Assembly: GCA_964503265.1 (NCBI GenBank)
Contig: CAZCYO010000002.1
Coordinates: 66,604-130,603 of the forward strand
DNA: 64,000 nucleotides
Source: an uncultured Gammaproteobacteria bacterium
GTDB lineage: Bacteria; Patescibacteriota; Microgenomatia; Levybacterales; UBA12049
Direction: 5' to 3'
Below are positions 5,853 to 19,830 of the stretch, one piece after another. Within the stretch, counting starts at the first letter, position 1; each line of letters opens with the position of its first letter. Under the pieces are notes generated by a model. The model was not told the origin of the DNA and ran no database searches. It saw nothing but the letters and a program-made list of their open reading frames with translations. The position numbers were made by a program, and so were the translations under genes.

Positions 5853-6443
5853 ATGATACTAATGAGAAGATTCTTTCTGCTTACTACGTTCTTTTCGATT
5901 ATTCCAGTCGTTTTTCTTTTCTCAATCGTTTTCTTACTCTTTTTATCCTATAAAACCTCTGAGCGTGACGATACGAATAACTTCCTCACTTCTCAGCGAA
6001 GCGTTAATTACGCTGCGCTTCCGACCAACGAAAATTCATTTAGTACGTCTATCGTACAAGAAGATGGTCGAATCGAGTTGATAAAAAAATTTCTTGATCG
6101 GTATCATTCACCACTTTACCCATATGCAGCCTCAATAGTAAGAGATGCTGATACATATGGTCTGGACTACCGTCTTATTCCAGCGATAGCCATGCAGGAA
6201 TCAAATTTATGTAAAAAAATGCCTATAGATTCAAATAACTGTTGGGGATTTGGTATTTATGGAGGAAAAATCCTGTATTTTGATACATTTGAGAAGGGAA
6301 TTACGACAGTAACGAAAGCATTAGCTACTAAATATAAAGCTCGAGGTCTTGAAACACCTGATGAAATCATGAAAATGTATACTCCTGGTAGTAATGGGAG
6401 CTGGGCAAATGGTGTGAATTACTTCCTCGACGAGATCCAATAA
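5853..6443 (+). CDS. Secreted/membrane-anchored putative peptidoglycan hydrolase (GH73-glucosaminidase- or SLT-like), paralog 1
   Basis: N-terminal TM; conserved AIAMQESNLCK...NNCWGFGIYGG...TPGSNGSWANGVNYF block shared with ORF 6701-7261. Confidence 0.4.
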   Translation: MILMRRFFLLTTFFSIIPVVFLFSIVFLLFLSYKTSERDDTNNFLTSQRSVNYAALPTNENSFSTSIVQEDGRIELIKKFLDRYHSPLYPYAASIVRDADTYGLDYRLIPAIAMQESNLCKKMPIDSNNCWGFGIYGGKILYFDTFEKGITTVTKALATKYKARGLETPDEIMKMYTPGSNGSWANGVNYFLDEIQ

Positions 6444-6528
6444 CATATTTTCTTACATTTCTCCCAAATGCAACTCATTTTAGGCACGAAATCATTATTC
6501 CTTCCCGCTGTTTAATACCCCATAATAC

Positions 6529-6557
6529 TTGACAAACCTATAGTTATATGATATAGT
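6529..6557 (+). promoter_or_regulatory. Sigma70-type promoter TTGACA-17-TATAGT
   Basis: Exact -35 TTGACA (6529-6534), 17-nt spacer, -10 TATAGT (6552-6557). Confidence 0.5.
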
Positions 6558-6563
6558 ACTGAC

Positions 6564-6645
6564 ATCCGGATTGGAGAGTTATTCCAACACTTTCGAGTCC
6601 GGCTCAAAGTATCCTAATTGGCATTAGTTCAATTAGGATTTTTTG
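6564..6645 (+). ncRNA. Candidate small RNA / cis-regulatory leader (about 82 nt) ending in intrinsic terminator
   Basis: Predicted TSS about 6564; nested stems CCGGA[UUGGA-GAGUUAU-UCCAA]...UCCGG; terminator AUCCUAAUUG-loop-CAAUUAGGAU + U6 at 6611-6645; 55 nt before ORF 6701. Confidence 0.35.
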
Positions 6646-6700
6646 TTAAATAGTGTTCGAACAAATAGTTAGTTCAAAACTAGCTATTTAGAAAGACATT

Positions 6701-7261
6701 ATGAGATATATTATTACATCGCTAATACTTGTAATTATTACAATGGTACTAGCTTTCCCTACAAAAGCGCAGGCTGAGGTTAAAACTCCATCAGCTACGT
6801 TTGGATATCTTGCTTCAAATACTCGAGTAACGAGTGTAAAAGAGCGACGTATCAAAATTCTCCAAAAATACCTTGAAGATCATGACTCATCTATGAGTAC
6901 GTCAGCACGAACATTCGTGGAAACGGCTGAAGCAAACGATCTTGACTGGAGATTCGTCGCATCTATTTCAGGTGTGGAATCATATTTTGGTAAACATATT
7001 CCTTACAACTCATATAATGGATGGGGTTGGGGAGTCTATGGAACGAATGTAATCCGGTTCTCGTCATGGGATGAAGCTATTACGACTATTTCTCAAACAC
7101 TTAAAACGCGCTATATAGATCGTGGTGCAACAGATGTACCATCTATTGGACGTATGTATGCAGCTGACCCTAATTGGTCAAGTAAAGTACAGCACTTTAT
7201 GACTGATATCGCGAAATACGAAAGTACCTTCACGGACACAAAGCTTTCCATTTCTATCTAA
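6701..7261 (+). CDS. Secreted putative peptidoglycan hydrolase, paralog 2
   Basis: Signal peptide ...PTKAQAEV; ASISGVESYFGK...NGWGWGVYGT...ADPNWSSKVQHF paralogous to 5853-6443. Confidence 0.4.
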   Translation: MRYIITSLILVIITMVLAFPTKAQAEVKTPSATFGYLASNTRVTSVKERRIKILQKYLEDHDSSMSTSARTFVETAEANDLDWRFVASISGVESYFGKHIPYNSYNGWGWGVYGTNVIRFSSWDEAITTISQTLKTRYIDRGATDVPSIGRMYAADPNWSSKVQHFMTDIAKYESTFTDTKLSISI

Positions 7262-7285
7262 GTCGATTATAATAATCACGTTCAT

Positions 7286-7366
7286 GCGGATGTGGTGAAA
7301 TGGTATACACGCAAGTTTTAGGAACTTGTGCCGTAAGGCATGGAGGTTCAAGTCCTCTCATCCGCA
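7286..7366 (+). tRNA. tRNA-Leu (anticodon UAG)
   Basis: Anticodon stem CAAGU/ACUUG loop UUUAGGA, long variable arm, T-loop GGTTCAAGTCC; TATAAT 12 nt upstream. Confidence 0.85.
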
Positions 7367-7500
7367 CAGTTAGTTAGGAGTGACTGATCATTCTTTTTTG
7401 TCCAATCACAAATAACCAATCACTAATAACTAGATGTCTTGAAGAGGATTGGCTAAATTGATAGAATTAGGGTATAATCCCAGTCACGGATTACAAAACT

Positions 7501-8349
7501 ATGAATAAAGCAGCGAAAACACCATCCTCAACGATACAAAGAGAAACAGACGGAACTATTACGCTTTCAATCAGTATTCCAAAAGAACAAATCGCTAAAG
7601 TTCGTGAAGAAGTTATCGATCAGACTGTAGCCACTGCTGATCTTCCAGGTTTTCGAAAAGGAAAAGCTCCTCGAAAAATCGTTGAAGAAAGTATTAGTGT
7701 TGAAAAGCTCAATGAAGAAATATTAAAAAAACTTCTTCCTGATTCATATATCGCCACAGTTCAAGAAAACAACCTCAAGCCAATTATCAATCCAAAAATT
7801 CATGTAAATTCAGTAGTTCCTGGAGAAGATTGGACCTATACAGCACTTACATGTGAAGTGCCAGACATCGAACTTGGAAACTATAAAGAAGCTATCGGAA
7901 AAATCACAGCGAAAAGTAAAATTGCGATTCCTGGAAAAGAAAAAATAGAACCAAATTTTGACGATATTATGAAAGCCCTCACAGACACGGTTAAAGTTCA
8001 GGTTCCAAGTATTTTAGTTGAACAGGAAGTAGATAGACTTCTTTCTCAAATGTTAGGAGAAATCAAAACACTCGGACTGACACTTGATCAATACCTCGCT
8101 TCAACGAAGAAAACTCCCGACGATTTAAGAAAAGATTATGGGACTAAAGCTGAGAATGATATAAAGATCGAATTTACTCTTCAAAAAATTGCAGACACTG
8201 AAAAGATTTCAGTCGAAGAAAAAGAAATTGAAGAGGCAATCACGAAAGCGACTTCAGTCGAAGAACGAAATCATCTGCAATCAAACCGCTATTTATTAAC
8301 AAGTATTATAAGACAGCAGAAGACGCTTGATTTCCTAAAGACTCTATGA
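7501..8349 (+). CDS. tig: Trigger factor (short form lacking PPIase domain)
   Basis: Ribosome-binding signature GFRKGKAP near N-terminus; 282 aa. Confidence 0.8.
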   Translation: MNKAAKTPSSTIQRETDGTITLSISIPKEQIAKVREEVIDQTVATADLPGFRKGKAPRKIVEESISVEKLNEEILKKLLPDSYIATVQENNLKPIINPKIHVNSVVPGEDWTYTALTCEVPDIELGNYKEAIGKITAKSKIAIPGKEKIEPNFDDIMKALTDTVKVQVPSILVEQEVDRLLSQMLGEIKTLGLTLDQYLASTKKTPDDLRKDYGTKAENDIKIEFTLQKIADTEKISVEEKEIEEAITKATSVEERNHLQSNRYLLTSIIRQQKTLDFLKTL

Positions 8350-8368
8350 TACATTCCAAACTAAGATT

Positions 8369-9034
8369 ATGGCCAGTAACATTGCATCACACCCTAAAGT
8401 AGGTTCAGCGAACACACATGAGACAGAATCCGTCTCAGGTGCGCTGCGTAGTGCTGCAAATGATATAAAAGACCAGATAACCCCTTTTGGTAGTGACTTC
8501 TTTAAACAACTCCTAGGCCTTGAAGAAAAAACCGCTTCTGCACATAAAAAAGGTGAAGTAGTTGACATGAAACCTGGTGAAGCAATCGACTTCAAAGCAC
8601 TTAAGAAGCAAAAATCGGCTGAAACGATGCATAATCCAAATATTCTTCCCGGCATCGATTACAGACGAGAGATCGTTCATGGATCAGAAACTATTAATGC
8701 CAAAGAGAAAAATGAAATCGCACAGACTATCAACGAAATTAAAAACGAACTTCAACGACTCGTCAGTTCATCAGCACTCCTCCAGGAAGAATTTAAAGGT
8801 GTATATATGAACCAAGCACCAGCTACTCCTGGAAAATATCATCAGAATTTCTTCGAATGGGTACTTATCGTTCTTAAACAAGCTCGCATGAAAGTTGAAG
8901 ATTCTGGGGCATGGATTCAAGCTATGAAAGGAAAAGGCAAAAAAGGAAAAGCAGACTACTGGGGCATGTTCAAAAAACATGGTACAACATTCGGTCAATC
9001 AAATGAACGAAGTGTCGCTACACAAACAGGATAA
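8369..9034 (+). CDS. Hypothetical protein with basic C-terminus
   Basis: 221-aa ORF directly after tig; no recognisable motif. Confidence 0.4.
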   Translation: MASNIASHPKVGSANTHETESVSGALRSAANDIKDQITPFGSDFFKQLLGLEEKTASAHKKGEVVDMKPGEAIDFKALKKQKSAETMHNPNILPGIDYRREIVHGSETINAKEKNEIAQTINEIKNELQRLVSSSALLQEEFKGVYMNQAPATPGKYHQNFFEWVLIVLKQARMKVEDSGAWIQAMKGKGKKGKADYWGMFKKHGTTFGQSNERSVATQTG

Positions 9035-9036
9035 CT

Positions 9037-9303
9037 ATGAGTGCTGAAAATCCACTCCCACCAGGACGAGCTCGTCGAGAACAACGAAAAGCAGCGAGAG
9101 AAGCTATCCGAGAACAAATACGTGACCCCCATCAAATTGATAAGATCGCCCATGAAGTTAGTGGCTCAGAGTACACTCCACCTCCACGTCAGGATAACTC
9201 AGTACAAGCTATCCTAGAACGTGCAGCACAAAGAGAAAAAGAAGAGAAAGAAGAGAATGTAAAATTAATTGATTTATTCGTTGATTCAAGGTTTTCAGAA
9301 TAG
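9037..9303 (+). CDS. Hypothetical charged protein
   Basis: 88 aa, Arg/Glu-rich; 2 nt after previous stop. Confidence 0.35.
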   Translation: MSAENPLPPGRARREQRKAAREAIREQIRDPHQIDKIAHEVSGSEYTPPPRQDNSVQAILERAAQREKEEKEENVKLIDLFVDSRFSE

Positions 9304-9499
9304 TTGACAACGCCAAGCTAAAAATTTATAATTCTCTCAATGTTAAGAAATATCGTGCTCCTACCAGTCGTGATTAATAACCTCCTAATTGGGGGCTTTC
9401 ATACTGGGGAGAATTCGATATAAGGTAAATAAAATACAAAAGACCGATAAAGACCACCTCCCCCAAAGGGAGGTTTTTTTATGGCTAGAAAAGGAATAT
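9304..9499 (+). promoter_or_regulatory. Attenuator module A: promoter TTGACA-17-TATAAT, leaderless leader ORF, hairpin 1 (9381-9395), hairpin 2 CCUCCC-CCAAA-GGGAGG-U7 (9457-9480) carrying SD
   Basis: -35 9304-9309, -10 9327-9332, leader ATG 9340 (7 nt after -10); GGGAGG 3' arm is 8 nt before ATG 9481. Confidence 0.45.
9340..9423 (+). CDS. Leader peptide A, MLRNIVLLPVVINNLLIGGFHTGENSI (Ile/Val/Leu-rich)
   Basis: Leaderless ATG 7 nt after -10; branched-chain codons precede hairpin-1 5' arm. Confidence 0.35.
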   Translation: MLRNIVLLPVVINNLLIGGFHTGENSI

Positions 9500-10267
9500 A
9501 TGTTAGACAAATATCAACAAACAGGGTATGACGCAGAAGCATTTAGATCACCTAAACCAGGTATCTTTACCGCACGTCAAGAAATAACACCAATATTACG
9601 CCCTAATTTTAAAGATCGTCAGCAAGCTAAACCACTTGGAAGACAAAGAGATAATGAAAATGAACAGATGATTGAACAAACATTTCGTTCGGAAGGAGGG
9701 GTAAGAGTCATGGTTCCTATTAAAATTCTTTCAGGAACTCAAAATGGCGAAGCGTATTCTCAAAGTAGACGAAGATATGTAGAAAATCAAATGCGAACTA
9801 ACGGTGTGCAGTTTTTACAGGAAAATCCAATACAAGCATGTTTTATTCCATCTGATGGAGATCAGAACGGAAATCAATTTGGAAGATTAGCAATCTTAGA
9901 AGGACATCATAGGGCCAGATATGCACCAAAATACGGTATTTCTAAAGTTCCAACTGCAATATTTACACTCGAACAAACAGCAAGAGTATTAAACAAAATT
10001 GGTGAGACGTTTAATGGTGATCCGTTTACACCAGAGACAGCAAAAGACTGGCTTGATTTTGGAATTATTAAAGCTGAATATGACTTTACGACATATCCTG
10101 ATAACCTCGCTGCACAAAGACGTCTTACAGGGGTAGCCTCTATAAATGAACTTGTCGATAGCTATAAACTCACCCCCATAGAGCAACCTCATCACTTTCA
10201 CCCAGCAGCTAATTACACTGCTATTGGCACGCATGCATATTATGACTATGCAGCAGGAGATAAATAG
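9500..10267 (+). CDS. ParB/Srx-like nuclease-domain protein (GHHR motif); start re-placed after the terminator
   Basis: LAILEGHHRARYAPKYG matches ParB N-terminal/sulfiredoxin DGHHR motif; TTG-extended track ORF 9389 reads through the hairpin and is rejected; ATG 9500 has GAAAAGGAA RBS. Confidence 0.5.
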   Translation: MLDKYQQTGYDAEAFRSPKPGIFTARQEITPILRPNFKDRQQAKPLGRQRDNENEQMIEQTFRSEGGVRVMVPIKILSGTQNGEAYSQSRRRYVENQMRTNGVQFLQENPIQACFIPSDGDQNGNQFGRLAILEGHHRARYAPKYGISKVPTAIFTLEQTARVLNKIGETFNGDPFTPETAKDWLDFGIIKAEYDFTTYPDNLAAQRRLTGVASINELVDSYKLTPIEQPHHFHPAANYTAIGTHAYYDYAAGDK

Positions 10268-10273
10268 CTATTA

Positions 10274-10449
10274 TTGACAAATAAATTGAAGAATTCTATA
10301 CTCAGATTATGTTCATAACAAGCGCTAACAACTCAATTATTATTATTAACTCCCTCCGGGAGGTTCTTTTCGTGTAATAAGTAAACTTACACGAAAATGA
10401 ATAACCTCCCAAATTGGGAGGTTTTTTTATGGGAAAAATAATTACTTAA
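10274..10449 (+). promoter_or_regulatory. Attenuator module B: TTGACA-17-TATACT, leader ORF, hairpin 1 (10350-10363), hairpin 2 (10405-10428) with SD, mini-ORF MGKIIT
   Basis: -35 10274-10279, -10 10297-10302, leader ATG 10309; hairpin 2 CCUCCCA-AAU-UGGGAGG + U7 then ATG 10429. Confidence 0.5.
10309..10377 (+). CDS. Leader peptide B, MFITSANNSIIIINSLREVLFV (four consecutive AUU Ile codons at 10336-10347)
   Basis: Ile run ends 2 nt before hairpin-1 5' arm CUCCC. Confidence 0.4.
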   Translation: MFITSANNSIIIINSLREVLFV

Positions 10450-10643
10450 ATAAGAGGGGGTCGTAATGCTGATTTAAATCAGCATGAAGATCTCGAGGCT
10501 TAAATAAGCCGAAGATCCTGGAATCATAAAGATTCTAGGGCATACGAACGAATGAAATGAGGAAAGGGGCCACGAGTCTTACGACATCGCGGCATCATAT
10601 ACGATTTATAGGTTACTAACCTAGGAATAAGAGGTGAATATAT

Positions 10644-11033
10644 ATGACAAGAGAAGAAAATTTACAGTACAGAGCAGCACATGGGTATATCGGTGATAAT
10701 GAAATCGGTGTAAATGTTACGCCTACTACAAATAGATCACCATTCAGAGAAACAGGTAGATTACTCAGACTTGCAGAAGCAGCGGGCCGAGGACTAAATG
10801 GTTGGGAAGCGCAATACGAACAAACACGCGTATCAGATCCTATGCCAGAAATAAACGTACCAGAGGCAGACAATCATGTAGCTGAGGCACTTACAACTGT
10901 ATTTGGAGGAGAGCCTACTATGTATAAAGCTGATGCAGCTACCCTTGCAGTAAAAGACCAAGCATATCAAGCAACAGAACTTCCTCGAATTCGAGCAGCA
11001 CTAGCTGATCTTAGTAATGGAAATAGAGAATAA
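10644..11033 (+). CDS. Hypothetical protein
   Basis: 129 aa, strong RBS AAGAGGTGA; GC higher than flanks. Confidence 0.45.
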   Translation: MTREENLQYRAAHGYIGDNEIGVNVTPTTNRSPFRETGRLLRLAEAAGRGLNGWEAQYEQTRVSDPMPEINVPEADNHVAEALTTVFGGEPTMYKADAATLAVKDQAYQATELPRIRAALADLSNGNRE

Positions 11034-11124
11034 ATAGGATTGATTCATTGCCAGGCGGAGACTCTTTCTACGCCTGGCAATAGGACTTGTCACATATCCA
11101 TACTCATGCTAGACTGCCAGGTTA

Positions 11125-11853
11125 ATGGTAACTGTTGAGCAACGGACACATACTGAGAGAACATATGCACAGGCTCCTATGGCTGTTGCGGATGCAATGA
11201 TGGTCGGAACGACTGAATTAGTAACGAGTTATGCAGCTAGGCATCCAGTACAAACACCAGATGGAAGACCTCCTTCTCTCACTGACATAGCACAGACATT
11301 TCCTAAGAATACGTTTATGTACAACATGGAGGTTGTCATGAAAAATGCGACAGAAAAAATGTGCCAAACAGGTTCTGAGGTTGCAGTACGATTTCTTCTC
11401 GATAACCATTCCTCGCTTTTCGATAGGATTGGCCTCATACAGGCAGAAGGGAAACTTAATAATGGAAGTTGGAGACTGCATGAGCTATTTTTAGTTCGTG
11501 ATACGCGGAAGATATGGTACGCGGGAAGTCCGGCAAATTACGAACCAGAAGTAGCTGATAGGAAGTTAGCCTCTAGAAAGAACCAATCTGGTACTCTCGA
11601 ATTATTTCAACATCCCGATCTAGATATGCTTCTGAGTCACATTAAACAATCTGTAGGCGGACAATGGCCTGATCCATCATTTATTGAAGAAACCATTAAC
11701 ACAGGACCATTTCCAGGTAATCGGGAATGGTCATCGAATTATGCTATTCCTTTTAAACGATTAAAACGTGTTTACTCGTCTGATCAAGAAACCTATGACA
11801 AAGAAGAAAAAATCCTTCTTCAACCATATCGACGAGGAGGAAGAGTACTCTAA
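11125..11853 (+). CDS. Hypothetical protein
   Basis: 242 aa; no recognisable motif. Confidence 0.45.
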   Translation: MVTVEQRTHTERTYAQAPMAVADAMMVGTTELVTSYAARHPVQTPDGRPPSLTDIAQTFPKNTFMYNMEVVMKNATEKMCQTGSEVAVRFLLDNHSSLFDRIGLIQAEGKLNNGSWRLHELFLVRDTRKIWYAGSPANYEPEVADRKLASRKNQSGTLELFQHPDLDMLLSHIKQSVGGQWPDPSFIEETINTGPFPGNREWSSNYAIPFKRLKRVYSSDQETYDKEEKILLQPYRRGGRVL

Positions 11854-11893
11854 TTGTGAGAAATGAATAAATTTGTTAGAATAGGCACTACAC

Positions 11894-11970
11894 GGAGCTA
11901 TAGCTCAGTTGGCTAGAGCGTTTCATTGACATTGAAAAGGTCACTGGTTCGAGTCCAGTTAGCTCCACCA
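11894..11970 (+). tRNA. tRNA-Val (anticodon GAC), CCA encoded
   Basis: GGAGCTA acceptor, anticodon stem UUUCA/UGAAA loop UUGACAU, T-loop GGTTCGAGTCC, ...TAGCTCCACCA. Confidence 0.85.
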
Positions 11971-12042
11971 GGCACAATTCTGCGCCTGGCTTCGCCGGAT
12001 TTAGTCTTGTATATCCTCATTAAACAACCGTATACTAATCAT

Positions 12043-12651
12043 ATGATTACAGTAGCATCACCATCTTCATCTTTTACCCGTGAACAGGCAAATGAAATTC
12101 TCCATAAGTATTTAAAAAATATAAATCTTTTGAAACATTCATTTGCGGCTGAGGCGGCGATGAAGGCAATTTATGAGAAGTTCTATCTTAACGATATTAA
12201 TTACTCACTCGCCGAGAAAGAAAAGTGGGGGATAACTGGGCTTCTTCATGATGCAGATTATGAGTTATCTAAAAATAATCCTGAAGTTCATGGGTTACTG
12301 CTGTTTGAAAAAGAAGTAGGTGTCGTACCTGAGGACATTGCCCACGCAATTAAAGCACATAATTGGGAATACACGAAAATCATGCCAGAGTCACTCATGG
12401 ATTGGGCGATCGCATGTTCCGATCAACTAACGGGTTTAATCGTCGCTGCAACGCTAATTCATCCGGACAAGAAAATAAAGAATATTACCGCAGATTTCGT
12501 CCAGAAGCGTATGAATGAAAAAACATTTGCAAAAGGTGCTAAAAGAGAATCAATTCTACTATGTGAAGAAAAACTAGGTATCCCACTTCCAGAATTTATC
12601 GAAATAGTTTTACGTGCTATGCAAGGAATAAATACAGAGTTGGGGTTATAA
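12043..12651 (+). CDS. HD-domain phosphohydrolase
   Basis: H...HD motif (LLHDADYE); track ORF start (TTG 11926) lies inside the tRNA so ATG 12043 preferred; TTGTAT-18-TATACT upstream. Confidence 0.55.
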   Translation: MITVASPSSSFTREQANEILHKYLKNINLLKHSFAAEAAMKAIYEKFYLNDINYSLAEKEKWGITGLLHDADYELSKNNPEVHGLLLFEKEVGVVPEDIAHAIKAHNWEYTKIMPESLMDWAIACSDQLTGLIVAATLIHPDKKIKNITADFVQKRMNEKTFAKGAKRESILLCEEKLGIPLPEFIEIVLRAMQGINTELGL

Positions 12652-12693
12652 TTCTCTTGACGTCACAGTTATTACATTTGTTATACTGCTATT

Positions 12694-13026
12694 ATGAACC
12701 ATCAGACTCCACAATTAACAAAGTCAGATCTTCAGGAAACATTGAAGGACTACCCTACGAAACAGGATCTCCATAATGCGTTGAAAGATTACCCGACCAA
12801 ACAAGACCTTCATAACGAAATAGCAATTACTCATGAAGTTATGGAGATAAAATTAAAAGAACAAAGTAATAGTATTTTTGAGAAATTAGACTATCTTATT
12901 AAACAATTTGAGGAAATGAGAGAAGATAGAGAATTAAAAACATATCATGATGCAAATACGGCAAAAACACTTCAAAATCATGATAAAAGAATAAAAAAAC
13001 TTGAACAAACAATCCAGAAAGCATAA
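12694..13026 (+). CDS. Coiled-coil protein with tandem 14-aa repeat LKDYPTKQDLHNxL
   Basis: Two consecutive near-identical 42-nt units at 12745-12830 with synonymous changes. Confidence 0.45.
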   Translation: MNHQTPQLTKSDLQETLKDYPTKQDLHNALKDYPTKQDLHNEIAITHEVMEIKLKEQSNSIFEKLDYLIKQFEEMREDRELKTYHDANTAKTLQNHDKRIKKLEQTIQKA

Positions 13027-13028
13027 TA

Positions 13029-13244
13029 ATGCAAAAATACGAACAGGCAGTTGAAACAAATCGTAAGAAGATTTTCATCAATAACGTTATTGGTGGATTT
13101 GGATGGGCACTAGGAAGTACTATTGGATTAGCGATCTTTGCGACACTTCTAACATTTTTACTAAGTAAAATTGATTTGATTCCACTACTAGGAACCTATC
13201 TCGCTAAGCTTAATGCATTTATCGCTACACACCCGCACCAATAA
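13029..13244 (+). CDS. Small membrane protein (2 TM)
   Basis: 71 aa, hydrophobic, 2 nt after previous stop. Confidence 0.4.
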   Translation: MQKYEQAVETNRKKIFINNVIGGFGWALGSTIGLAIFATLLTFLLSKIDLIPLLGTYLAKLNAFIATHPHQ

Positions 13245-13248
13245 TTCT

Positions 13249-13381
13249 TGACGATTATAAATAACCATGATACAGTAAAAAAAATGAGTAACTTTTCTAA
13301 GATTATTACAACAACTACAACTCCCTAGCGGAGGTTGTTTTGTTATAGAGACAGACACCTCCCACATGGGAGGTTTTTTTT
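13249..13381 (+). promoter_or_regulatory. Attenuator module C (Thr leader) upstream of thrS operon: TTGACG-16-TACAGT, leader ORF, hairpin 1 (13321-13334), hairpin 2 (13358-13381)
   Basis: -35 13249-13254, -10 13271-13276, leader ATG 13284; hairpin 2 CCUCCCA-CAU-GGGAGG + U8 then ATG 13382. Confidence 0.55.
13284..13328 (+). CDS. Leader peptide C, MSNFSKIITTTTTP (Ile-Ile-Thr x5)
   Basis: Thr codons ACA ACA ACU ACA ACU at 13308-13322 abut hairpin-1 5' arm; stop UAG lies in hairpin-1 loop. Confidence 0.45.
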   Translation: MSNFSKIITTTTTP

Positions 13382-13654
13382 ATGATTGAATCACAAATAC
13401 AAACCCTCGAACAAGCAAGTAATGAGCCTAAAAATAGAGAAGGATTTGATCCAACCATACGAGGTCCTATTGCGACACTTTACTTACCACTAGAGAAAAA
13501 AGTAATAGCACATGCAATTCAATTTGAAAAATGGCAAAAAGAAACTATTGACTCAGGGAAGCCTCTCAATGGGATTACGAGAGAAAGCGAAGTAACAACT
13601 CAGCCAACCCGACAAGAAGAAATTATTCTCTTTGAAACTAGTGAAAGTAAATAA
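13382..13654 (+). CDS. Hypothetical 90-aa protein (possible divergent TGS-like N-terminal piece of ThrRS)
   Basis: SD in hairpin 2; C-terminal GKPLNGITRESEVTTQPTRQEEIILFET weakly resembles ThrRS TGS domain (..KLNGKEIDL.TPI.EDGTVEII.). Confidence 0.4.
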   Translation: MIESQIQTLEQASNEPKNREGFDPTIRGPIATLYLPLEKKVIAHAIQFEKWQKETIDSGKPLNGITRESEVTTQPTRQEEIILFETSESK

Positions 13655-13707
13655 ATCTTTAAAAGCATATCTGTATCTGCTATAGTCGAGATCAGAGGAG
13701 ATAAATT

Positions 13708-15462
13708 ATGGAAAACGACAAAAGACAACATATGAGACATTCTGCAGCACATTTACTCGCTGCTGCGATGATGAAACTGTATCCTAAAACCAAACTTACT
13801 ATTGGTCCTGCGATTGAAAACGGGTTTTATTATGATTTCGATTTGGAAAATCCTATTAACGAGGAAGACTTTTCTAACATTGAAGCAACTATGAGAGAAC
13901 TACTTCCTTCATGGAAAGCATTTACTCACCGTGAAGTATCAGAGCATGATGCGAAAGAATTTTATAAGCATAATGAGTATAAGCTAGAACTGATCGATGA
14001 AATTATCGCTAAAGGCGAGAAGATTACATTTTATACGTCTGGTGACTTTGAAGATCTTTGTCGTGGCGGACATAGTGAGAATCCATCTAAAGATATTGGC
14101 GCTGTAAAACTTCTTTCGATTGCAGGAGCGTATTGGCGAGGGAGTGAGAAAAATAAAATGCTTACTCGTATCTATGGAACGGCATTTGCCACTCAAGAAG
14201 AACTTGACGAGTATTTAGGGATGTTAGAGGAAGCAAAAAAGCGTGATCATAAGAAGTTAGGTCGAGAACTTGATCTCTTCTTCTTTACAGAAACCTCTCC
14301 TGGCATGGCATACTGGCTTCCAAAAGGACTTACCGTGTATAACACACTTTATGGGTATGTACGAGAAATGTATAAAAAGTATGGATATCAAGAAGTCGCT
14401 ACCCCACAACTAAATAAAAAAGAACTATACGAAATATCTGGTCATTGGCAGCACTACCGTGGGGACATGTTTATTTCTCCGATGAGCTATATAACCGAAG
14501 ACTCGTCTGAACTTCTAGAGGGAAGTGAGGTGTTTGGTATTAAGCCGATGAATTGCCCAAATGCCATGACAATTTTCGATTTGAGAACGAGATCATACAC
14601 AGAATTACCACTTCGACTTGCCGAGACATCCATTCTCCATCGATTTGAACTATCCGGGACACTTAATGGTCTTTTCAGAATTCGACAATTCCGACAAGAT
14701 GACGCTCACGTATTTATGACAGTTACTCAAATAAAACAAGAGTTTGAAGCTCTCATGGACATGATTGCTGATATGTATGCTCCATTTGATTTATCATACA
14801 AGCTTCGTTTTGGAACCCGGCCAGAAAAATTTATGGGAGAAAGTAGCGATTGGGATGTGGCAGAACGAGAACTCAAACAAGTATTAGTTGATTCAGGCCA
14901 AGAATTCTTTGAGGCAGCAGGTGAAGGAGCTTTTTATGGTCCTAAAATTGATATCTTAATGCGTGATTCAATCGGGAGAGAATGGCAGACAGGAACGATT
15001 CAACTAGACTTCCAACAGCCAAAGAATTTTACATTGAAATATACCGATAATGACGGTTCTGAGAAAACTCCGGTTGTCCTTCATCGTGCTATTTATGGTT
15101 CGTTCGAAAGATTTCTTGGAATTCTCGTTGAACACTATGGAGGAAAATTCCCATTATGGCTTGCTCCTATACAATTAACGCTTCTTCCAATTGCTGACAG
15201 ACATGTCGAGTTCGCTGAAAAAATAGCCTCAGAATATAAAGAATTAGGAATTCGAGTCGAAGTTGACAGTACGTCAGAGCGCTTACAAGCTAAGATTAGG
15301 AACGCTACTTTACAAAAAGTGCCGTTTATGGGTATAATAGGGGACGCGGAAATTGCTGAGAACGTAATTTCGGTTCGTGTAAGAAGCGGCGAAGATCTCG
15401 GTAAAATCGAAACTTCCAAGTTTCTGACCCAACTTAAAGAAAACATTGATAAAAAAGTATAA
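13708..15462 (+). CDS. thrS: Threonyl-tRNA synthetase, lacking N-terminal TGS domain
   Basis: Starts at editing-domain HxxxH motif (HMRHSAAHLLAAAMM); class II aaRS core and anticodon-binding domain alignable along full length. Confidence 0.9.
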   Translation: MENDKRQHMRHSAAHLLAAAMMKLYPKTKLTIGPAIENGFYYDFDLENPINEEDFSNIEATMRELLPSWKAFTHREVSEHDAKEFYKHNEYKLELIDEIIAKGEKITFYTSGDFEDLCRGGHSENPSKDIGAVKLLSIAGAYWRGSEKNKMLTRIYGTAFATQEELDEYLGMLEEAKKRDHKKLGRELDLFFFTETSPGMAYWLPKGLTVYNTLYGYVREMYKKYGYQEVATPQLNKKELYEISGHWQHYRGDMFISPMSYITEDSSELLEGSEVFGIKPMNCPNAMTIFDLRTRSYTELPLRLAETSILHRFELSGTLNGLFRIRQFRQDDAHVFMTVTQIKQEFEALMDMIADMYAPFDLSYKLRFGTRPEKFMGESSDWDVAERELKQVLVDSGQEFFEAAGEGAFYGPKIDILMRDSIGREWQTGTIQLDFQQPKNFTLKYTDNDGSEKTPVVLHRAIYGSFERFLGILVEHYGGKFPLWLAPIQLTLLPIADRHVEFAEKIASEYKELGIRVEVDSTSERLQAKIRNATLQKVPFMGIIGDAEIAENVISVRVRSGEDLGKIETSKFLTQLKENIDKKV

Positions 15463-16009
15463 AACAAAACAAGATCAAAAGTTCTATAGAATAAACGAGC
15501 GTATCTTTGCCCAGACGCTTCGAGTGATTGATCTAGAAGGAAAACAAATCGGGGTTATCTCAAAAAGCGAAGCCATAAGCCTCGCCCGAGAGCAAGGGTT
15601 AGACGTAGTTGAAATTGCACCACTCGCTACACCGCCTGTTGCTAAGATTATCGATTATAATAAATTCCTTTACCAAGAAGAAAAGAAAAAAAGAGAAGAA
15701 AAGAGAAACGCAAAGGTATCCGAGACGAAGGAAGTTCGACTAGGTCCGTTTATGTCTGACAATGATTTAGCAACCATGGTCAAGCGAACACGAGATTTTC
15801 TAGAAGACGGAGACAAGGTTCGACTGGTCGTTAAATATAAAGGAAGACAAATAACCCATCCAGAATTTGGACAGGTTATAATGCAAAAAGTAATACTAGC
15901 AGTTGACGATATATCGAAAGTAGATCGTGAGCCTAAATTTGAAGGTAAACAACTGATTACATTACTCTCACCTGAAAGGAAGAAAAAGAATGCCGAAGAA
16001 AAAAATTAA
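15446..16009 (+). CDS. infC: Translation initiation factor IF-3 (non-ATG start: TTG 15446 or AUA 15449)
   Basis: YRINERI...LDVVEIAPLATPPVAKIIDYNKFLY typical IF3; overlaps thrS end. Confidence 0.85.
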   Translation: MIKKYKTKQDQKFYRINERIFAQTLRVIDLEGKQIGVISKSEAISLAREQGLDVVEIAPLATPPVAKIIDYNKFLYQEEKKKREEKRNAKVSETKEVRLGPFMSDNDLATMVKRTRDFLEDGDKVRLVVKYKGRQITHPEFGQVIMQKVILAVDDISKVDREPKFEGKQLITLLSPERKKKNAEEKN

Positions 16010-16187
16010 AAAATCAGTATCTAGACGCTTTAAAGTTACAAAAACTGGAAAAGTGATGTTTAGCCATCAATATGCTGGTCATCATAAAATCCATAAATCA
16101 AAAAAACGTCTTCGCAGACTGAAAGAACCAGCAGAAATGACTGGAAGATTCGCAAGAAACATTAAAAAATTATTAGGAGCACTATAA
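15990..16187 (+). CDS. rpmI: 50S ribosomal protein L35
   Basis: MPKKKIKKSVSRRFKVTKTGKV... 65 aa basic. Confidence 0.85.
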   Translation: MPKKKIKKSVSRRFKVTKTGKVMFSHQYAGHHKIHKSKKRLRRLKEPAEMTGRFARNIKKLLGAL

Positions 16188-16188
16188 T

Positions 16189-16539
16189 ATGGCAAGAGTA
16201 AAACGAGGTATTGTTTCAAGACGCAAACACAATAAACTACTTGGATTAACCAAGGGTTTTCGTGGTACAAAAAGCAGTCTTATTAAAACAGCACATGAAG
16301 CTGCACTTCACGCTGGAGCATATGCATTCCATGGACGAAAATTACGAAAACGAGATATTCGATCTCTATGGATTATTAGAATTGGTGAAGCAGTTAAAAA
16401 AGAAAGTCTTTCATACAGTAAATTTATTGATATGCTTAAAAAAGCAAATGTTGAACTTGATAGAAAGATTCTAAGTGATCTTATCGTAAACCATCCTGAA
16501 ACATTTAAAAAAGTTCTTGACAGTGTTAAAACTGCTTGA
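16189..16539 (+). CDS. rplT: 50S ribosomal protein L20
   Basis: MARVKRGIVSRRKHNKLL... 116 aa. Confidence 0.9.
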   Translation: MARVKRGIVSRRKHNKLLGLTKGFRGTKSSLIKTAHEAALHAGAYAFHGRKLRKRDIRSLWIIRIGEAVKKESLSYSKFIDMLKKANVELDRKILSDLIVNHPETFKKVLDSVKTA

Positions 16540-16708
16540 TAAGCTAATACCCATGATCACAACACGACAATCATATTTCTATTTTTACTTTACTTCCTTA
16601 ACCGGGAGGTCTTTTGCTGTCTAAGCAAGAAAAGTAAAACATAGACACAAAAGAGTACACCTCCCACACGGGAGGTTTTTTTATGGGAAAAATAAGAAAG
16701 GAATCACT
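16517..16708 (+). promoter_or_regulatory. Attenuator module D (Phe/Tyr leader, pheM-like): TTGACA-17-TAAGCT, leader ORF, hairpin 1 (16593-16609), hairpin 2 (16661-16682), mini-ORF MGKIRKESLCQE overlapping next start
   Basis: -35 16517-16522 overlaps rplT stop; leader ATG 16553; hairpin 2 CCUCCCA-CAC-GGGAGG + U7 then ATG 16683. Confidence 0.55.
16553..16624 (+). CDS. Leader peptide D, MITTRQSYFYFYFTSLTGRSFAV (Phe/Tyr run; compare E. coli PheM [15 protein letters not shown])
   Basis: Six consecutive Tyr/Phe codons 16574-16591 end 1 nt before hairpin-1 5' arm CUUCC. Confidence 0.45.
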   Translation: MITTRQSYFYFYFTSLTGRSFAV

Positions 16709-17662
16709 ATGCCAGGAATAGAAATGCGACATCATTCAGTTGAAATTATTGCAGGACCATGCTCAATGGATGAGAAAAACAGAGGAGAAATAGATACCAT
16801 TGCAGGGATTAGTTTACCTGACGGCCGTCCTGCCATTTATGGAACACGTGTGGTCGGATATAAATCACGAACAGAGTTAGATCCTTCAGGGAAAGGAATG
16901 GGGGTCGATTATCATGCAGTCGAACATGCGTTAGATACGAATGAACTAGGAGATGATCCACAAAGTGTAATGTGGGCACGGGAAATCGTAAAAGATACTG
17001 GCCTTCAAATTGCAACTGAAATTATGGTTCCTCATATTCAATTAGGATATTTTCAACGAGACCCGCTATTTCAAGGCAAACTATTACCATGGAATCCATC
17101 AGTTGATCAATTAGGACCTCATATGAGGCAAATGGGGAAATTTGCAATTAAAAATGAGTGGAGACTAGGTATAAAAAATGGAAAAGATTTAGGAGTAACC
17201 CCAAGTGTTGCAAATGATAAGAATGGCCGAGCACCTACCCCTCTTGAAAAAACATGGGGAGGACTTGCCACATGGGCACATGGATTAGATGAAAGTAATT
17301 TGGTTTTCATACAACGTGGAGTAAATATTCCTGAGAGAGGAGATCATAGAAACCTTCCAATACATGAAGCGACACGGCGAATTAAAGAAAGGTTTCCACA
17401 TGCTATTACATTATTTGATCCAAGTCATAGCTTTGGACCGAAGATGCGAGATCAAATTGTAGAAGGAAGTATAGATGCATTACGAATGACAGCAGGGAGT
17501 AGACCACTATATGATGGACTACTTATTGAAGCAGGGAGCTCAGATACTGATACAGACCAACATATTACCATTCAAGAACTTACCGAACTTGTTGATACCG
17601 TTCAACGGATTAGAGATGTTCGCACACGAGAACCACACAACTTCTATCAAAGAAGGGCGTAG
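16709..17662 (+). CDS. 3-deoxy-7-phosphoheptulonate (DAHP) synthase, class I-alpha (AroG-like)
   Basis: IIAGPCSMDE (GPCS), KSRT (KPRT analogue), KTWGGLATWAHG...FIQRGVN, LFDPSHS, GLLIEAG line up with E. coli AroG blocks. Confidence 0.6.
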   Translation: MPGIEMRHHSVEIIAGPCSMDEKNRGEIDTIAGISLPDGRPAIYGTRVVGYKSRTELDPSGKGMGVDYHAVEHALDTNELGDDPQSVMWAREIVKDTGLQIATEIMVPHIQLGYFQRDPLFQGKLLPWNPSVDQLGPHMRQMGKFAIKNEWRLGIKNGKDLGVTPSVANDKNGRAPTPLEKTWGGLATWAHGLDESNLVFIQRGVNIPERGDHRNLPIHEATRRIKERFPHAITLFDPSHSFGPKMRDQIVEGSIDALRMTAGSRPLYDGLLIEAGSSDTDTDQHITIQELTELVDTVQRIRDVRTREPHNFYQRRA

Positions 17663-17685
17663 TAGTACATAAAACATATTCAATT

Positions 17686-18645
17686 GTGTCGGTCACACAG
17701 TTGCAGTATAATGAGCTAGTTATGAAAAATGAAATGATTTTTATCGATGGCAAATTTGTTTTAGAAACTGATGCGAGAATATCGCTTAAAACACATGCAC
17801 TCCAGTATGGAACTGGCTGCTTTGAAGGAATTAGAGCGTACTATTCAGAAGAAGACGATGCGCTCTATGCATTTAGAGTAGAAGATCATTTTAGGAGATT
17901 TCTTAAATCATGTCATATACTGTTTATGAAACTTCCATATTCTGTTGAGGAATTAACGACATTTACTATCGAACTCTTAAAAAAGAACTATGACAAAACA
18001 GATATTTATATTAGGCCATTCGCTTTTAAATCTGAACCGACAGTCAGTAGTTTTAATCTTCAAACTCTTAAAACAAGTGTAGCGATCTATACAATCGCGA
18101 TGGGAAGATATCTCGATACAAAAGGTCTGAAAGCAAATATCTCTACCTGGAAAAGAGTCAATGACAATGCAATTCCACCTCGTGCAAAGATTACTGGCTC
18201 ATATATAAATACAGCACTTGCTAAAACAGAATCTCAGCTGAACGGATATGACGAAGCATTATTTTTAGATGAATCTGGCCATGTCGTCGAAGGAAGTGCA
18301 GAGAATATTTTCATTATTAAAGGAAATACTTTGATTACTCCATCTATCTCTGAAGATATTCTTCAGGGAATCACGAGGGAAACTATTATGATGTTAGCTC
18401 GTGATCATACTAATCTCACACTTGTCGAAAGAAGTATCGGGCGAACAGAACTATATCAAGCTGATGAAGTATTTTTAGTAGGAACGGGAGCCGAAGTAGC
18501 ACCAGTTATCGAAATTGATAAACGTGAAATTGGTACAGGTAAAACAGGACCACATACAGAAAAGATAAAAGATCTTTATTTTAAACTCGTTCATGGACAG
18601 TTACCAGAATATAAACAGTTATTTACCAAAATAACGTCTGACTAA
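17686..18645 (+). CDS. ilvE: Class IV PLP aminotransferase (branched-chain/aromatic amino-acid aminotransferase)
   Basis: EVFLVGTGAEVAPV and GSAENIFIIKGN motifs; probable start ATG 17722 (TTGTGT-17-TATAAT 9 nt upstream). Confidence 0.7.
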   Translation: MSVTQLQYNELVMKNEMIFIDGKFVLETDARISLKTHALQYGTGCFEGIRAYYSEEDDALYAFRVEDHFRRFLKSCHILFMKLPYSVEELTTFTIELLKKNYDKTDIYIRPFAFKSEPTVSSFNLQTLKTSVAIYTIAMGRYLDTKGLKANISTWKRVNDNAIPPRAKITGSYINTALAKTESQLNGYDEALFLDESGHVVEGSAENIFIIKGNTLITPSISEDILQGITRETIMMLARDHTNLTLVERSIGRTELYQADEVFLVGTGAEVAPVIEIDKREIGTGKTGPHTEKIKDLYFKLVHGQLPEYKQLFTKITSD

Positions 18646-18647
18646 AC

Positions 18648-18721
18648 GTCATTCTGGAGCGCAGCGATAGAATCTCACATATTTTGAGATCCTATCAAAG
18701 TCGTTGCTTTTCCAGGATGAC
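18648..18721. repeat. REP-like imperfect palindromic element, copy 1 (GTCATTCTGGAG...CCAGGATGAC)
   Basis: 74-nt near-palindrome; reverse complement of copy at 21846-21917 aligns over almost entire length. Confidence 0.5.
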
Positions 18722-18734
18722 AGAGTAATAAAAT

Positions 18735-19787
18735 ATGGAAGATAAACTTAATTCTATTAAAAACGCAGCGCTTCCTCTTGTTTTGGATGCGAAATCTGCC
18801 AAAGAACTTGAAGATATTAAACTACAATTTTTAGGCAGAAGTGGACTCTTAACCGTAGCTCTTAAAGAACTCTCAAGTGTTCCAGCAGAAAAAAGGCCAG
18901 AAATCGGACGAGTTGCCAATGAAGTAAAACAGACGATAGAAAATGCGATAGAGTCGGTTGCAGAATCATTTATTAAACAAAAAAGACAACATAAAACGAA
19001 ACTTGACGTAACCGAGCCTGGAATAAGACCTTCTCTTGGGAATCTTCATCTGGTAACACAGGCGATAGAAGAAATTACTGCTATTTTTAATTCAATTGGA
19101 TTTACACGAGTTCGATATCCAGAAGTAGAATGGGATTGGTATGCTTTTGAGGCTCTTAATTTTCCTGAAAACCATCCAGCACGTGATGACTGGGAAACGT
19201 TTTTTATTAAACAGTCACCTGATGCTAAAAAAGGACCTGTCATTTTAACTCCGCATACCTCAAGTGGACAAATTCGTGAAATGGAAAAAGGAATACTTCC
19301 AATTAAAATGCTTAACATCGCTAAATGTTATCGAAGACAATCAGATGTTTCTCACTCATCGATGTTTCATCAATTTGAAACATTATGTGTCGGTGAAAAT
19401 GTCTCTATTGCAGATCTTAAAGGAGCACTTGATTACTTTGCCAAATCGTATTTCGGAGAAAAAAGAAAAACGAGAATCAGGCCATATCATTTCCAATTCA
19501 CCGAACCGTCTTTTGAGGTAGATATCTCATGTGGAATTTGTAATGGTACTGCTAAACTTGAGAATGGTGAGCCATGCAAACTATGTAAATCAGGATGGCT
19601 GGAGTTAGGTGGAGCAGGAATGGTTCATCCAAATGTATTAAAATATTGTGGTATCGATTCAACCAAATATACAGGATTTGCATCAGGATTTGGTGTTGAG
19701 CGAGTACTGATGATGAAAGATGGAATAGAACTCGATGATTTACGGCTCATTTACAGCCCTAAACTTGAGTTTTTACAACAGTTCTAA
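18735..19787 (+). CDS. pheS: Phenylalanyl-tRNA synthetase alpha subunit
   Basis: Class II motifs in a pheS-length ORF directly followed by pheT. Confidence 0.9.
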   Translation: MEDKLNSIKNAALPLVLDAKSAKELEDIKLQFLGRSGLLTVALKELSSVPAEKRPEIGRVANEVKQTIENAIESVAESFIKQKRQHKTKLDVTEPGIRPSLGNLHLVTQAIEEITAIFNSIGFTRVRYPEVEWDWYAFEALNFPENHPARDDWETFFIKQSPDAKKGPVILTPHTSSGQIREMEKGILPIKMLNIAKCYRRQSDVSHSSMFHQFETLCVGENVSIADLKGALDYFAKSYFGEKRKTRIRPYHFQFTEPSFEVDISCGICNGTAKLENGEPCKLCKSGWLELGGAGMVHPNVLKYCGIDSTKYTGFASGFGVERVLMMKDGIELDDLRLIYSPKLEFLQQF

Positions 19788-19830
19788 TTTTAGCAAAAAG
19801 CATAGAGCAAAGGGCTAAGAGAAATACCCT

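Follow-up and report, generated by a model that had tools for sequence, protein, structure and literature searches.

A 64,000-nt stretch of contig CAZCYO010000002.1 (positions 66,604 to 130,603 of the forward strand; hereafter, the window) carries at 9304-10267 a short leader region followed by a gene for an uncharacterised protein of 255 aa, whose predicted fold is that shared by ParB and sulfiredoxin (ParB/Srx fold). Our analysis points to this leader, named copy A, as a ribosome-mediated attenuator that probably senses how far the tRNAs for isoleucine, leucine and valine (Ile/Leu/Val) are charged and provides the sole transcription route into the ParB/Srx-fold gene. The genome is that of a relative of Levyibacteriota within the Patescibacteria/candidate phyla radiation (CPR). 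The three parts of this reading that could be tested, namely the attenuator, the fold of the protein and its start at ATG 9500, are all supported. An earlier note on this DNA had already proposed a leader-peptide attenuator rich in branched-chain amino acids. That proposal has gained strength, because the codon bias of the leader matches the downstream gene in sister modules of the window and of about 30 related genomes, and because antiterminator pairing is present.

The region 9100-10400 was read directly. Coordinates are window positions, and all features described here are on the + strand (Table 1). The promoter, the leader, the hairpins and the start codons ATG 9481 and ATG 9500 were found where the earlier note had placed them. 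A promoter scan of 6000-14000 returned a single full match to the sigma-70-type consensus, that of copy A, which begins 1 base past the stop codon of the preceding 88-codon frame. The AUG of the leader frame sits only 7 nt downstream of the -10 box, indicating that this frame is probably translated from a leaderless transcript. Ten of the codons 5-17 specify Ile, Leu or Val.

The leader RNA of copy A has a folding energy of -41 kcal/mol (z = -2.97). In its long hairpin, the Ile/Val/Leu codons form the 5' strand, which is paired with the 3' part of the leader frame. The first hairpin of the earlier note, CCUCC-UAAUU-GGGGG, does exist, though as the apex of a 72-nt stem and not as a separate structure. 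Two strands are candidates for the antiterminator: GGGGAG, with the leader stop codon at 9421 located 10 nt beyond it, and alternatively the GGGGG of the apex.

Table 1. Features of copy A, of the gene behind it and of the sister modules in the window
Feature	Position	Strand	Basis or remark
Sigma-70-type promoter, TTGACA (9304-9309), 17-nt spacer, TATAAT (9327-9332)	9304-9332	+	consensus match 12/12
Leader frame MLRNIVLLPVVINNLLIGGFHTGENSI, 27 codons + stop	ATG 9340, TAA 9421-9423	+	sequence
Proposed regulatory codons I5 V6 L7 L8 V10 V11 I12 L15 L16 I17	9352-9390 (codons 5-17)	+	
Long 1:2 hairpin, 72-nt stem	9350-9421	+	minimum-free-energy and centroid structures
Hairpin 1, CCUCC, loop UAAUU, GGGGG; apex of the long hairpin	9381-9385, 9391-9395	+	
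Putative antiterminator strand GGGGAG (region 2); partner CUCCCC (9458-9463) in the terminator 5' arm	9406-9411	+	constrained folds
Intrinsic terminator (hairpin 2, regions 3 and 4), ACCUCCC-CCAAA-GGGAGGU, and seven U (9474-9480)	9456-9474	+	terminator scan
Mini-frame MARKGIYVRQISTNRV, 16 codons + stop	9481-9531	+	runs into the start of the gene in a different frame
Probable Shine-Dalgarno sequence AAAGGAA for ATG 9500	9490-9496	+	sequence
Gene for the 255-aa ParB/Srx-fold protein, family uncharacterised	9500-10267	+	fold prediction, profile searches
Module B: promoter, leader MFITSANNSIIIINSLREVLFV (Ile run), hairpin, terminator (10403-10428)	10274-10430	+	
Module C: leader MSNFSKIITTTTTP (Thr run), terminator	13248-13381	+	ahead of a 90-codon frame
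Module D: leader MITTRQSYFYFYFTSLTGRSFAV (Phe/Tyr run)	16517-16683	+	ahead of a DAHP-synthase-like gene

These elements suggest the following mechanism. Transcription would begin at or beside the A of AUG 9340, and a ribosome would read the leader from the very 5' end of the RNA. When charged tRNA is plentiful, the ribosome would reach the stop codon and cover GGGGAG, the terminator would form, and RNA polymerase would stop at the U-run. If the leader were untranslated, GGGGAG would be held in the long hairpin, and transcription would also terminate, leaving the gene off. When Ile/Leu/Val tRNA is scarce, the ribosome would stall on codons 5-17 and cover the 5' strand of the long hairpin. Stalling would free GGGGAG (or GGGGG at 9391-9395) for pairing with CUCCCC, so that the terminator is blocked and the 255-aa protein can be made from ATG 9500. 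There is no space for a second promoter between the end of the U-run (9480) and ATG 9500, and the leader would thus be the only entry to the gene. Hairpin 2 would presumably also stop transcription that arrives from the upstream genes, which lack a terminator of their own.

For the pairing at the centre of this mechanism, we used constrained folding, in which the footprint of the stalled ribosome was masked and the nascent RNA was folded as far as the loop of the terminator. In all four copies of the module in the window, region 2, which is the 3' strand of the first hairpin, paired with the 5' arm of the terminator. The same pairing was obtained for six of eight leaders ahead of ParB/Srx-family genes, these eight being the window copy and seven loci picked by protein homology. 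The duplex of copy A (9406-9411/9458-9463) reached -11.8 kcal/mol, compared with -7.0 +/- 2.2 in shuffles. Among 56 leaders, the best duplex with the terminator 5' arm had a median z of -3.45 relative to shuffled leaders, and 89% of them fell below -2. In the alignment of Ile/Leu/Val leaders, the arm changes co-vary by lineage: GGCGG in the leader is accompanied by CCGCC beside the terminator arm, GUGGGAGG by CCUCCCAC, and GGGAGG by CCUCCC.

Copy A is one of a set. Four matches to CCTCC-loop-GGAGGTTTTT lie in the window, all on the + strand and between 9.3 and 16.7 kb, against none in 100 shuffles. In each of the four copies, an ATG stands 6-7 nt downstream of the -10 box of a near-consensus promoter and opens a short frame, behind which come a first hairpin and the terminator. 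Module B is followed by orphan frames of 129 and 242 codons. Behind module C, the 90-codon frame is followed by thrS (13708-15462), infC and rplT (region 13708-16539). Thr-rich leaders occupy the position of module C in 12 related loci, and to our knowledge no case of thrS control by a leader peptide has been described. Module D, with a promoter that overlaps the end of rplT, precedes a gene likened to 3-deoxy-D-arabino-heptulosonate 7-phosphate (DAHP) synthase, a class IV aminotransferase gene, pheS and pheT (region 16517-21813). The first of these genes encodes a 317-aa protein with only a faint likeness to DAHP synthase (27 bits vs a cutoff of 335).

The window was also scanned with the Rfam models, T-box and other families included. 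At the gathering threshold the scan yielded tRNAs only; the T-box covariance model had no match in the window, nor did the leader families (Leu_leader, Thr_leader, Phe_leader and others) reach the gathering level there. Below that level, RF01859 (Phe_leader) scored 38.6 bits for copy D (E = 8.6e-4), 32.4 for copy B and 22.8 for copy C, the gathering threshold being 55.

Between the terminator of module B and the 129-codon frame at 10644 lies a non-coding stretch of 213 nt (10431-10643) that contains several hairpins. It folds with -60.8 kcal/mol (z = -6.06), has no Rfam match, and no matching sequence was found in any fetched locus.

To compare the modules among genomes, 80 thrS-centred loci were found by a scan with the threonyl-tRNA synthetase (ThrRS) of the window, and modules were surveyed in about 30 related genomes. 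The closest ThrRS loci (73-63% identity) belong to Candidatus Levyibacteriota, Microgenomates and other Patescibacteria. Several records among them (L002, L003, L005-L011 and others) are titled "uncultured Gammaproteobacteria bacterium", while their gene order is that of Levyibacteriota/Microgenomates and their ThrRS identity is 60-73%; the Gammaproteobacteria labels on these records are probably wrong. The conserved order is trigger factor, DUF5660, a variable stretch, an HD-domain gene, thrS-infC-rplT, a second variable stretch and pheS-pheT. In the window, the trigger factor (7501-8349; 282 aa) matches the N- and C-terminal Pfam domains without the peptidyl-prolyl isomerase domain between them.

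The loci were scanned first for the terminator pattern and next for a short frame close to a promoter, which gave 51 modules (L001-L066). The -35 box was TTGACA in 33 of the 51, and the -10 box was separated from the ATG by 6-10 nt, most often by 7. For the bias test, the leaders were classed solely by the conserved genes that flank them. Those between the HD-domain gene (HD203) and thrS had 29% Thr (background, 7%), those between rplT and pheS had 24% Phe/Tyr/Trp (background, 8%), and those between DUF5660 and HD203, such as MHSRSLILSVVVLLLTEGGNAVVRK and MQKIKNLILVILNSLKGGKSDA, had 34-40% Ile/Leu/Val (background, 24%). Both the amino-acid bias and the freedom from stop codons were restricted to the leader frame. 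Outside the Ile/Leu/Val run and the hairpin arms, the leader alignment revealed no conservation of the peptide sequence.

The genes behind the leaders fit the same pattern. In relatives, a Thr leader lies ahead of an amino-acid kinase gene (L023) and an aromatic leader ahead of a prephenate dehydratase gene (L005), so that, with thrS and pheST, the cargo of sister and related copies suits the amino acid of the leader. A further aromatic leader (L016) precedes a gene resembling 5-enolpyruvylshikimate-3-phosphate (EPSP) synthase, which was identified by eye and not by a hidden Markov model (HMM). As far as sequence can tell, the related leaders are amino-acid-specific leader peptides and no chance frames. 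Between DUF5660 and the HD-domain gene there is also a tRNA-Val(GAC) gene (window 11894-11970), kept in 17 of 18 related loci scanned. This tRNA was considered as a target of the attenuator and ruled out, because its strand differs among genomes.

Whether the leader belongs with the ParB/Srx-like gene was approached from the protein side. Independent members of the family, on metagenome contigs and one Logan contig, were collected by protein similarity alone (18-sequence alignment). A ParB/Srx-like gene lies between DUF5660 and the HD-domain gene also in L082-L085, L087, L088 and L091. In six loci (L081, L082, L086, L090, L092 and L093), a promoter, a short frame rich in Ile/Leu/Val, a first hairpin and a terminator come before the gene, with leaders such as MSKFANIYVLLINP, MNKVLSINLVLLSR, MNSKILSNKLVLLITR, MYKRRFIITNALLISSAQRGGRVVV and MLKIIAINLNKLVVFTSTLRRSF. 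CCGCC/GGCGG-type arms replace CCUCC/GGAGG in five of the six, and in L093 the gene neighbourhood differs as well. In L088 and L091 the leader is rich in Phe, Ile, Trp and Leu. Since distant relatives also follow Ile/Leu/Val-rich leaders despite their different hairpin arms, the link between leader and gene is conserved. The pairing would accordingly appear to be old and recurrent, and no accident of module reuse. The earlier note had offered either an amino-acid-related role of the gene or reuse of the module for another signal; of these, accidental reuse now looks unlikely. The arrangement in the window looks like the ancestral one, retained.

Several observations weigh against attenuation of this gene by Ile/Leu/Val supply. 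In the Levyibacteriota loci L002-L035, which are the closest relatives, DUF5660 is still followed by the Ile/Leu/Val leader, but the gene behind it varies from one genome to the next, so by sequence comparison the leader is not tied to the ParB/Srx-fold protein in every genome. Family members without the module also occur (L089, L094 and, in tandem pairs, the second gene). Even at E <= 5, Rfam gives no match for copy A, and its antiterminator, with 6 base pairs and z = -2.2, is the weakest among the four copies of the window. The ParB/Srx-fold protein has no known tie to Ile/Leu/Val. Transcription start, termination and stalling are all inferred, as are the direction of regulation and the role of the protein. 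Moreover, an attenuator-like ilvB leader of Streptomyces failed to behave as an attenuator upon codon mutation (PMC1262725).

The orphan frames behind the leader in the closest relatives (70-280 codons) have no Pfam match. The family HMM detects none of them save in L002, in which weakly similar frames carry a DGNHRA motif (E = 0.02). The DUF5660-HD interval looks like a hotspot that places new genes under one amino-acid signal. Two of the loci, L025 and L030, share a 266-aa protein with a GSVAKG motif that looked nucleotidyltransferase-like.

The constancy of the leader ahead of changing genes would also be expected if 9340-9480 were a small RNA gene, or a dual-function RNA with a hydrophobic peptide, and if the ParB/Srx-like gene were expressed only by incidental read-through. 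A strong promoter and a strong terminator do bracket about 140 nt, and Sinorhizobium offers cases of action in trans, both by released attenuator RNAs and by leader peptides (PMC6614838, PMC7298713). We consider this explanation improbable, as it accounts neither for the Thr runs before thrS and the Phe/Tyr runs before pheST and phenylalanine-pathway genes nor for the conservation of the antiterminator, and the peptide lacks conservation beyond its codon run and the hairpin arms. A role in trans could, besides, coexist with attenuation.

About equally improbable is a module that senses translation in general, through ribosome availability or, in the manner of leader frames that sense antibiotics, a translation inhibitor, with the hydrophobic codons arising as a by-product of the hairpin (CUC CUN in CCUCC). 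The arms of hairpin 1 are indeed made of Leu codons 15-16 on the 5' side and of Gly codons on the 3' side, but the Ile/Val/Leu run reaches well upstream of the arm (codons 5-12) and is kept in lineages with CCGCC arms, which encode no Leu. The cargo without a known amino-acid role would suit such a general sensor, and so would the enrichment of Ile/Leu/Val, which is milder than that of Thr or aromatic residues; the sister modules, however, are clearly amino-acid specific.

Hairpin 2 might instead serve to end the upstream operon (trigger factor, DUF5660 and the 88-codon frame), with the promoter at 9304 being an ordinary one that drives a structured 5' untranslated region. No other terminator exists in 9034-9456, and incoming upstream transcripts would indeed meet hairpin 2. 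An ordinary promoter ahead of a strong terminator would, however, be self-defeating without an override, and the short frame, the codon bias and the antiterminator are all conserved, which makes this explanation very unlikely. The two roles are also compatible: upstream transcripts would translate the leader poorly for want of a Shine-Dalgarno sequence, and hence would terminate.

The least credible alternative, in which the protein starts at TTG 9389 (292 aa) and the hairpins lie inside coding sequence with no attenuator at all, draws on a frame that is open from 9389 and on a database entry of that length (P0001), but the additional 37 codons would hold the terminator hairpin and the seven U, no homologue aligns before residue ~26 (255-aa numbering) in a region predicted to be disordered, the same promoter-leader-terminator unit precedes unrelated genes, and the Shine-Dalgarno-like AAAGGAA stands ahead of ATG 9500. 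The start of P0001 at TTG 9389 is probably wrong, because it would place the terminator hairpin and the U-run within coding sequence, and ATG 9500 is likely to be the true start. An exact-sequence look-up of the 292-aa form returned no contig. Most homologues align only from about residue 50-70 of the 255-aa form, and the AlphaFold model predicts its N-terminal 50 residues to be disordered. Relatives have AAAGGAGGTGA at the equivalent place ahead of the ATG, in the same order of terminator, Shine-Dalgarno sequence and ATG. The earlier note had likewise preferred ATG 9500, with its ribosome-binding site, to the long TTG frame 9389-10267. Both start and site stand, and the length is 255 rather than 256 aa.

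Before ATG 9500, another start codon, ATG 9481, directly follows the U-run, and the terminator 3' arm GGGAGG is positioned as its Shine-Dalgarno sequence. The earlier note had reported here an open frame of 17 codons, which is present as 16 codons and a stop. Reassignment of UGA (genetic code 25) was ruled out for this frame, since a TAG follows four codons further. In the related modules, an ATG or GTG stands straight after the T-run in 39 of 51 (RTGG in 25). The frames so opened have 2-39 codons, mostly 2-7, and are not conserved; in 4 of the 51 modules this start codon opens the real gene. Start codons after the U-run are also found in the window modules at 9474-9483, 10422-10431, 13374-13384 and 16676-16686. 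What is conserved is the start codon and not the peptide, and the 9481 frame may be regarded as one instance of a conserved ribosome-loading feature and not as a peptide gene. Ribosomes may load there only on antiterminated RNA, in which the terminator is unformed.

The 255-aa protein itself belongs to an uncharacterised family. None of the models in Pfam, NCBIfam, PADLOC and PHROGs, which include anti-phage defence and phage families, matched it. Specifically, Pfam ParBc (PF02195) had no match to the window protein, and among 95 family members there was a single weak match to ParBc_2 (E = 0.0077). A word-indexed protein search returned only the protein itself, and five proteins when the family profile was used, while an exhaustive HMMER search of a representative set gave 121 matches at E <= 1e-3 including itself, mostly of 160-230 aa. 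The family motifs are IPxxxLxGxQ..EY, ENPxxxC and DGHHRxRY; a C-terminal RFxSF of the family is missing from the window protein. The motif LAILEGHHRARYAPKYG is present in the window protein, and its EGHHR (residues 134-138) is the GHHR-type motif of the ParB-N/sulfiredoxin kind that the earlier note had recognised. G135, H136 and R138 are conserved in at least 90% of the 95 sequences, and the motif aligns to IVDGHHR of 1vk1.

The AlphaFold model, built from a 95-sequence alignment, had a mean predicted local distance difference test (pLDDT) score of 79 overall and above 90 for residues ~55-225. Foldseek searches against the PDB matched it to the N-domains of Noc, ParB and KorB, and to sulfiredoxin, SbnI, free serine kinase (SerK) and PadC, with E-values from 8.5e-5 to 5e-2 and a probability of about 1 for most. 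GHHR is of the GxxR type by which the fold binds phosphate, a motif that reads DGHHR in the enzyme branch, and it occupies the position of the nucleotide-phosphate-binding loop in this fold. A profile search of PDB sequences gave weak matches (E = 0.3-0.8) to 1vk1 and free serine kinase, centred on DGHHR. These predictions support the ParB/Srx fold of the protein. Closer assignments fared differently. The helix-turn-helix and C-terminal dimerisation Pfam domains of the ParB/Noc/KorB clamps were not found in the window protein, and those structural alignments to Noc and ParB that extend past about 110 columns have a root-mean-square deviation of 9-20 A; helices at 157-221 are unassigned. For SerK and SbnI, the PDB profile E-values were 0.33-0.77, 91-100 residues were aligned, and the TM-score was about 0.25 (normalised by target length). 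Membership in ParBc (PF02195) or the serine kinases is not supported, and membership in the DNA clamps has no clear support. Of the earlier note's "ParB-like nuclease-domain protein", the ParB-like fold is borne out by AlphaFold and Foldseek, and the nuclease label found no support of any kind.

The ParB/Srx fold is known in CTP-dependent clamps and in enzymes that use ATP or ADP (PMC12704722). From GHHR and the matched structures, the most we would say is that the 255-aa protein may bind a nucleotide triphosphate and work either as an enzyme or as a switch. Our best guess, offered with low confidence, is a nucleotide-dependent enzyme or switch that would serve during Ile/Leu/Val shortage.

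In some lineages, the ParB/Srx-like gene is tandem-duplicated (L083-L085, L087, L088 and L091), and in P0002 two ParB/Srx-like domains are fused in a protein of 383 aa. The upstream gene of a tandem pair follows a leader and terminator in L088 and L091; in L083-L085 and L087 a separate consensus promoter serves the downstream gene, at a distance that suits a leaderless start.

In enterobacteria, the ilvGMEDA, ilvBN and leu operons are controlled by multivalent Ile/Leu/Val leader-peptide attenuators. Copy A shares with them, and with the candidate ilvB leaders of Actinobacteria, the promoter, a short frame with a codon run, and the structures formed by regions 1 to 4, namely the 1:2 hairpin, the terminator (3:4) and an antiterminator (2:3) that would be exposed by stalling. 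Unlike them, it belongs to Patescibacteria/CPR, is probably leaderless, has no Rfam match, and carries a ParB/Srx-fold cargo instead of a biosynthetic enzyme; moreover, the arms of both its hairpins share the words CCUCC/GGAGG. Copy D, with FYFYF before pheST and 38.6 bits on RF01859, is a direct analogue of pheM-pheST, and the order thrS-infC-rplT-leader-pheST is the same as in E. coli. Candidate ilvB leaders have been reported in Actinobacteria, as have the pheM-pheST attenuator in gamma-proteobacteria and the trpS and leuS attenuators in Streptomyces (PMC1262725). The window modules resemble the latter three in that leader-peptide attenuation is applied to genes of the translation apparatus; unlike in pheM-pheST systems, copy A does not stand before a tRNA synthetase gene, and all Rfam scores are below 55 bits.

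In mycobacteria, leaderless polycysteine short frames attenuate operon expression (bioRxiv 10.1101/834739). These frames are like copy A in their leaderless start, enrichment of one codon kind, position as first cistron and sensing of amino-acid supply. Copy A differs in its amino acids and phylum, and in its evident canonical terminator and antiterminator. T-box riboswitches perform the same task, controlling tRNA synthetase and amino-acid genes by antitermination according to tRNA charging, but they bind the tRNA directly, whereas the window modules would sense it through the translating ribosome. On the protein side, SerK, SbnI and sulfiredoxin are clamp-less proteins of the ParB-CTPase/sulfiredoxin fold (PMC12704722). 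The 255-aa protein resembles them in the predicted fold of residues ~66-165 and in GHHR at the phosphate-binding loop, and differs in its insignificant sequence similarity (E = 0.3-0.8), its lack of a PF02195 match, its own family motifs and a C-terminal part that SerK and SbnI, aligned over about 93-100 residues, do not match.

Most descriptions of leader-peptide attenuation concern Proteobacteria and Actinobacteria, and a few cases are known from Firmicutes (PMC2965389, PMC1262725). A full-text literature search found no paper that joins leader-peptide attenuation with Patescibacteria/CPR, although absence there is no proof. We regard the mechanism as classical; what is new is the lineage, the probably leaderless start, the reuse of one pair of hairpin words and the cargo.

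Together, the window and about 30 related genomes hold a set of putative switches in Thr, Phe/Tyr/Trp, Ile and Ile/Leu/Val versions, which precede tRNA synthetase genes, the few retained genes of amino-acid pathways and genes of unknown function. They indicate that a regulatory logic exists in organisms which resist cultivation on their own and have been credited with little regulation. Since the leader codons name the amino acid, the condition that would switch on an unknown gene can be read from sequence only. For the ParB/Srx-fold family, the prediction is that the protein would be made when Ile, Leu or Val is short, which could be tested in a cell-free system without culture. Tentatively, and with more doubt than we attach to the attenuator itself, leaderless leader-peptide attenuators that reuse a single pair of hairpin words might be, in the small genomes of Microgenomates-type CPR bacteria, general sensors of tRNA charging that replace T-boxes, and their Ile/Leu/Val member might control a CPR-specific, nucleotide-dependent enzyme or switch of the ParB/Srx fold that takes part in the starvation response for these amino acids, with an amino acid, a tRNA or the ribosome as examples of its target. 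If this is true, the leader would label function, both for the ParB/Srx-fold family and for the varied orphan genes found in its place in relatives.

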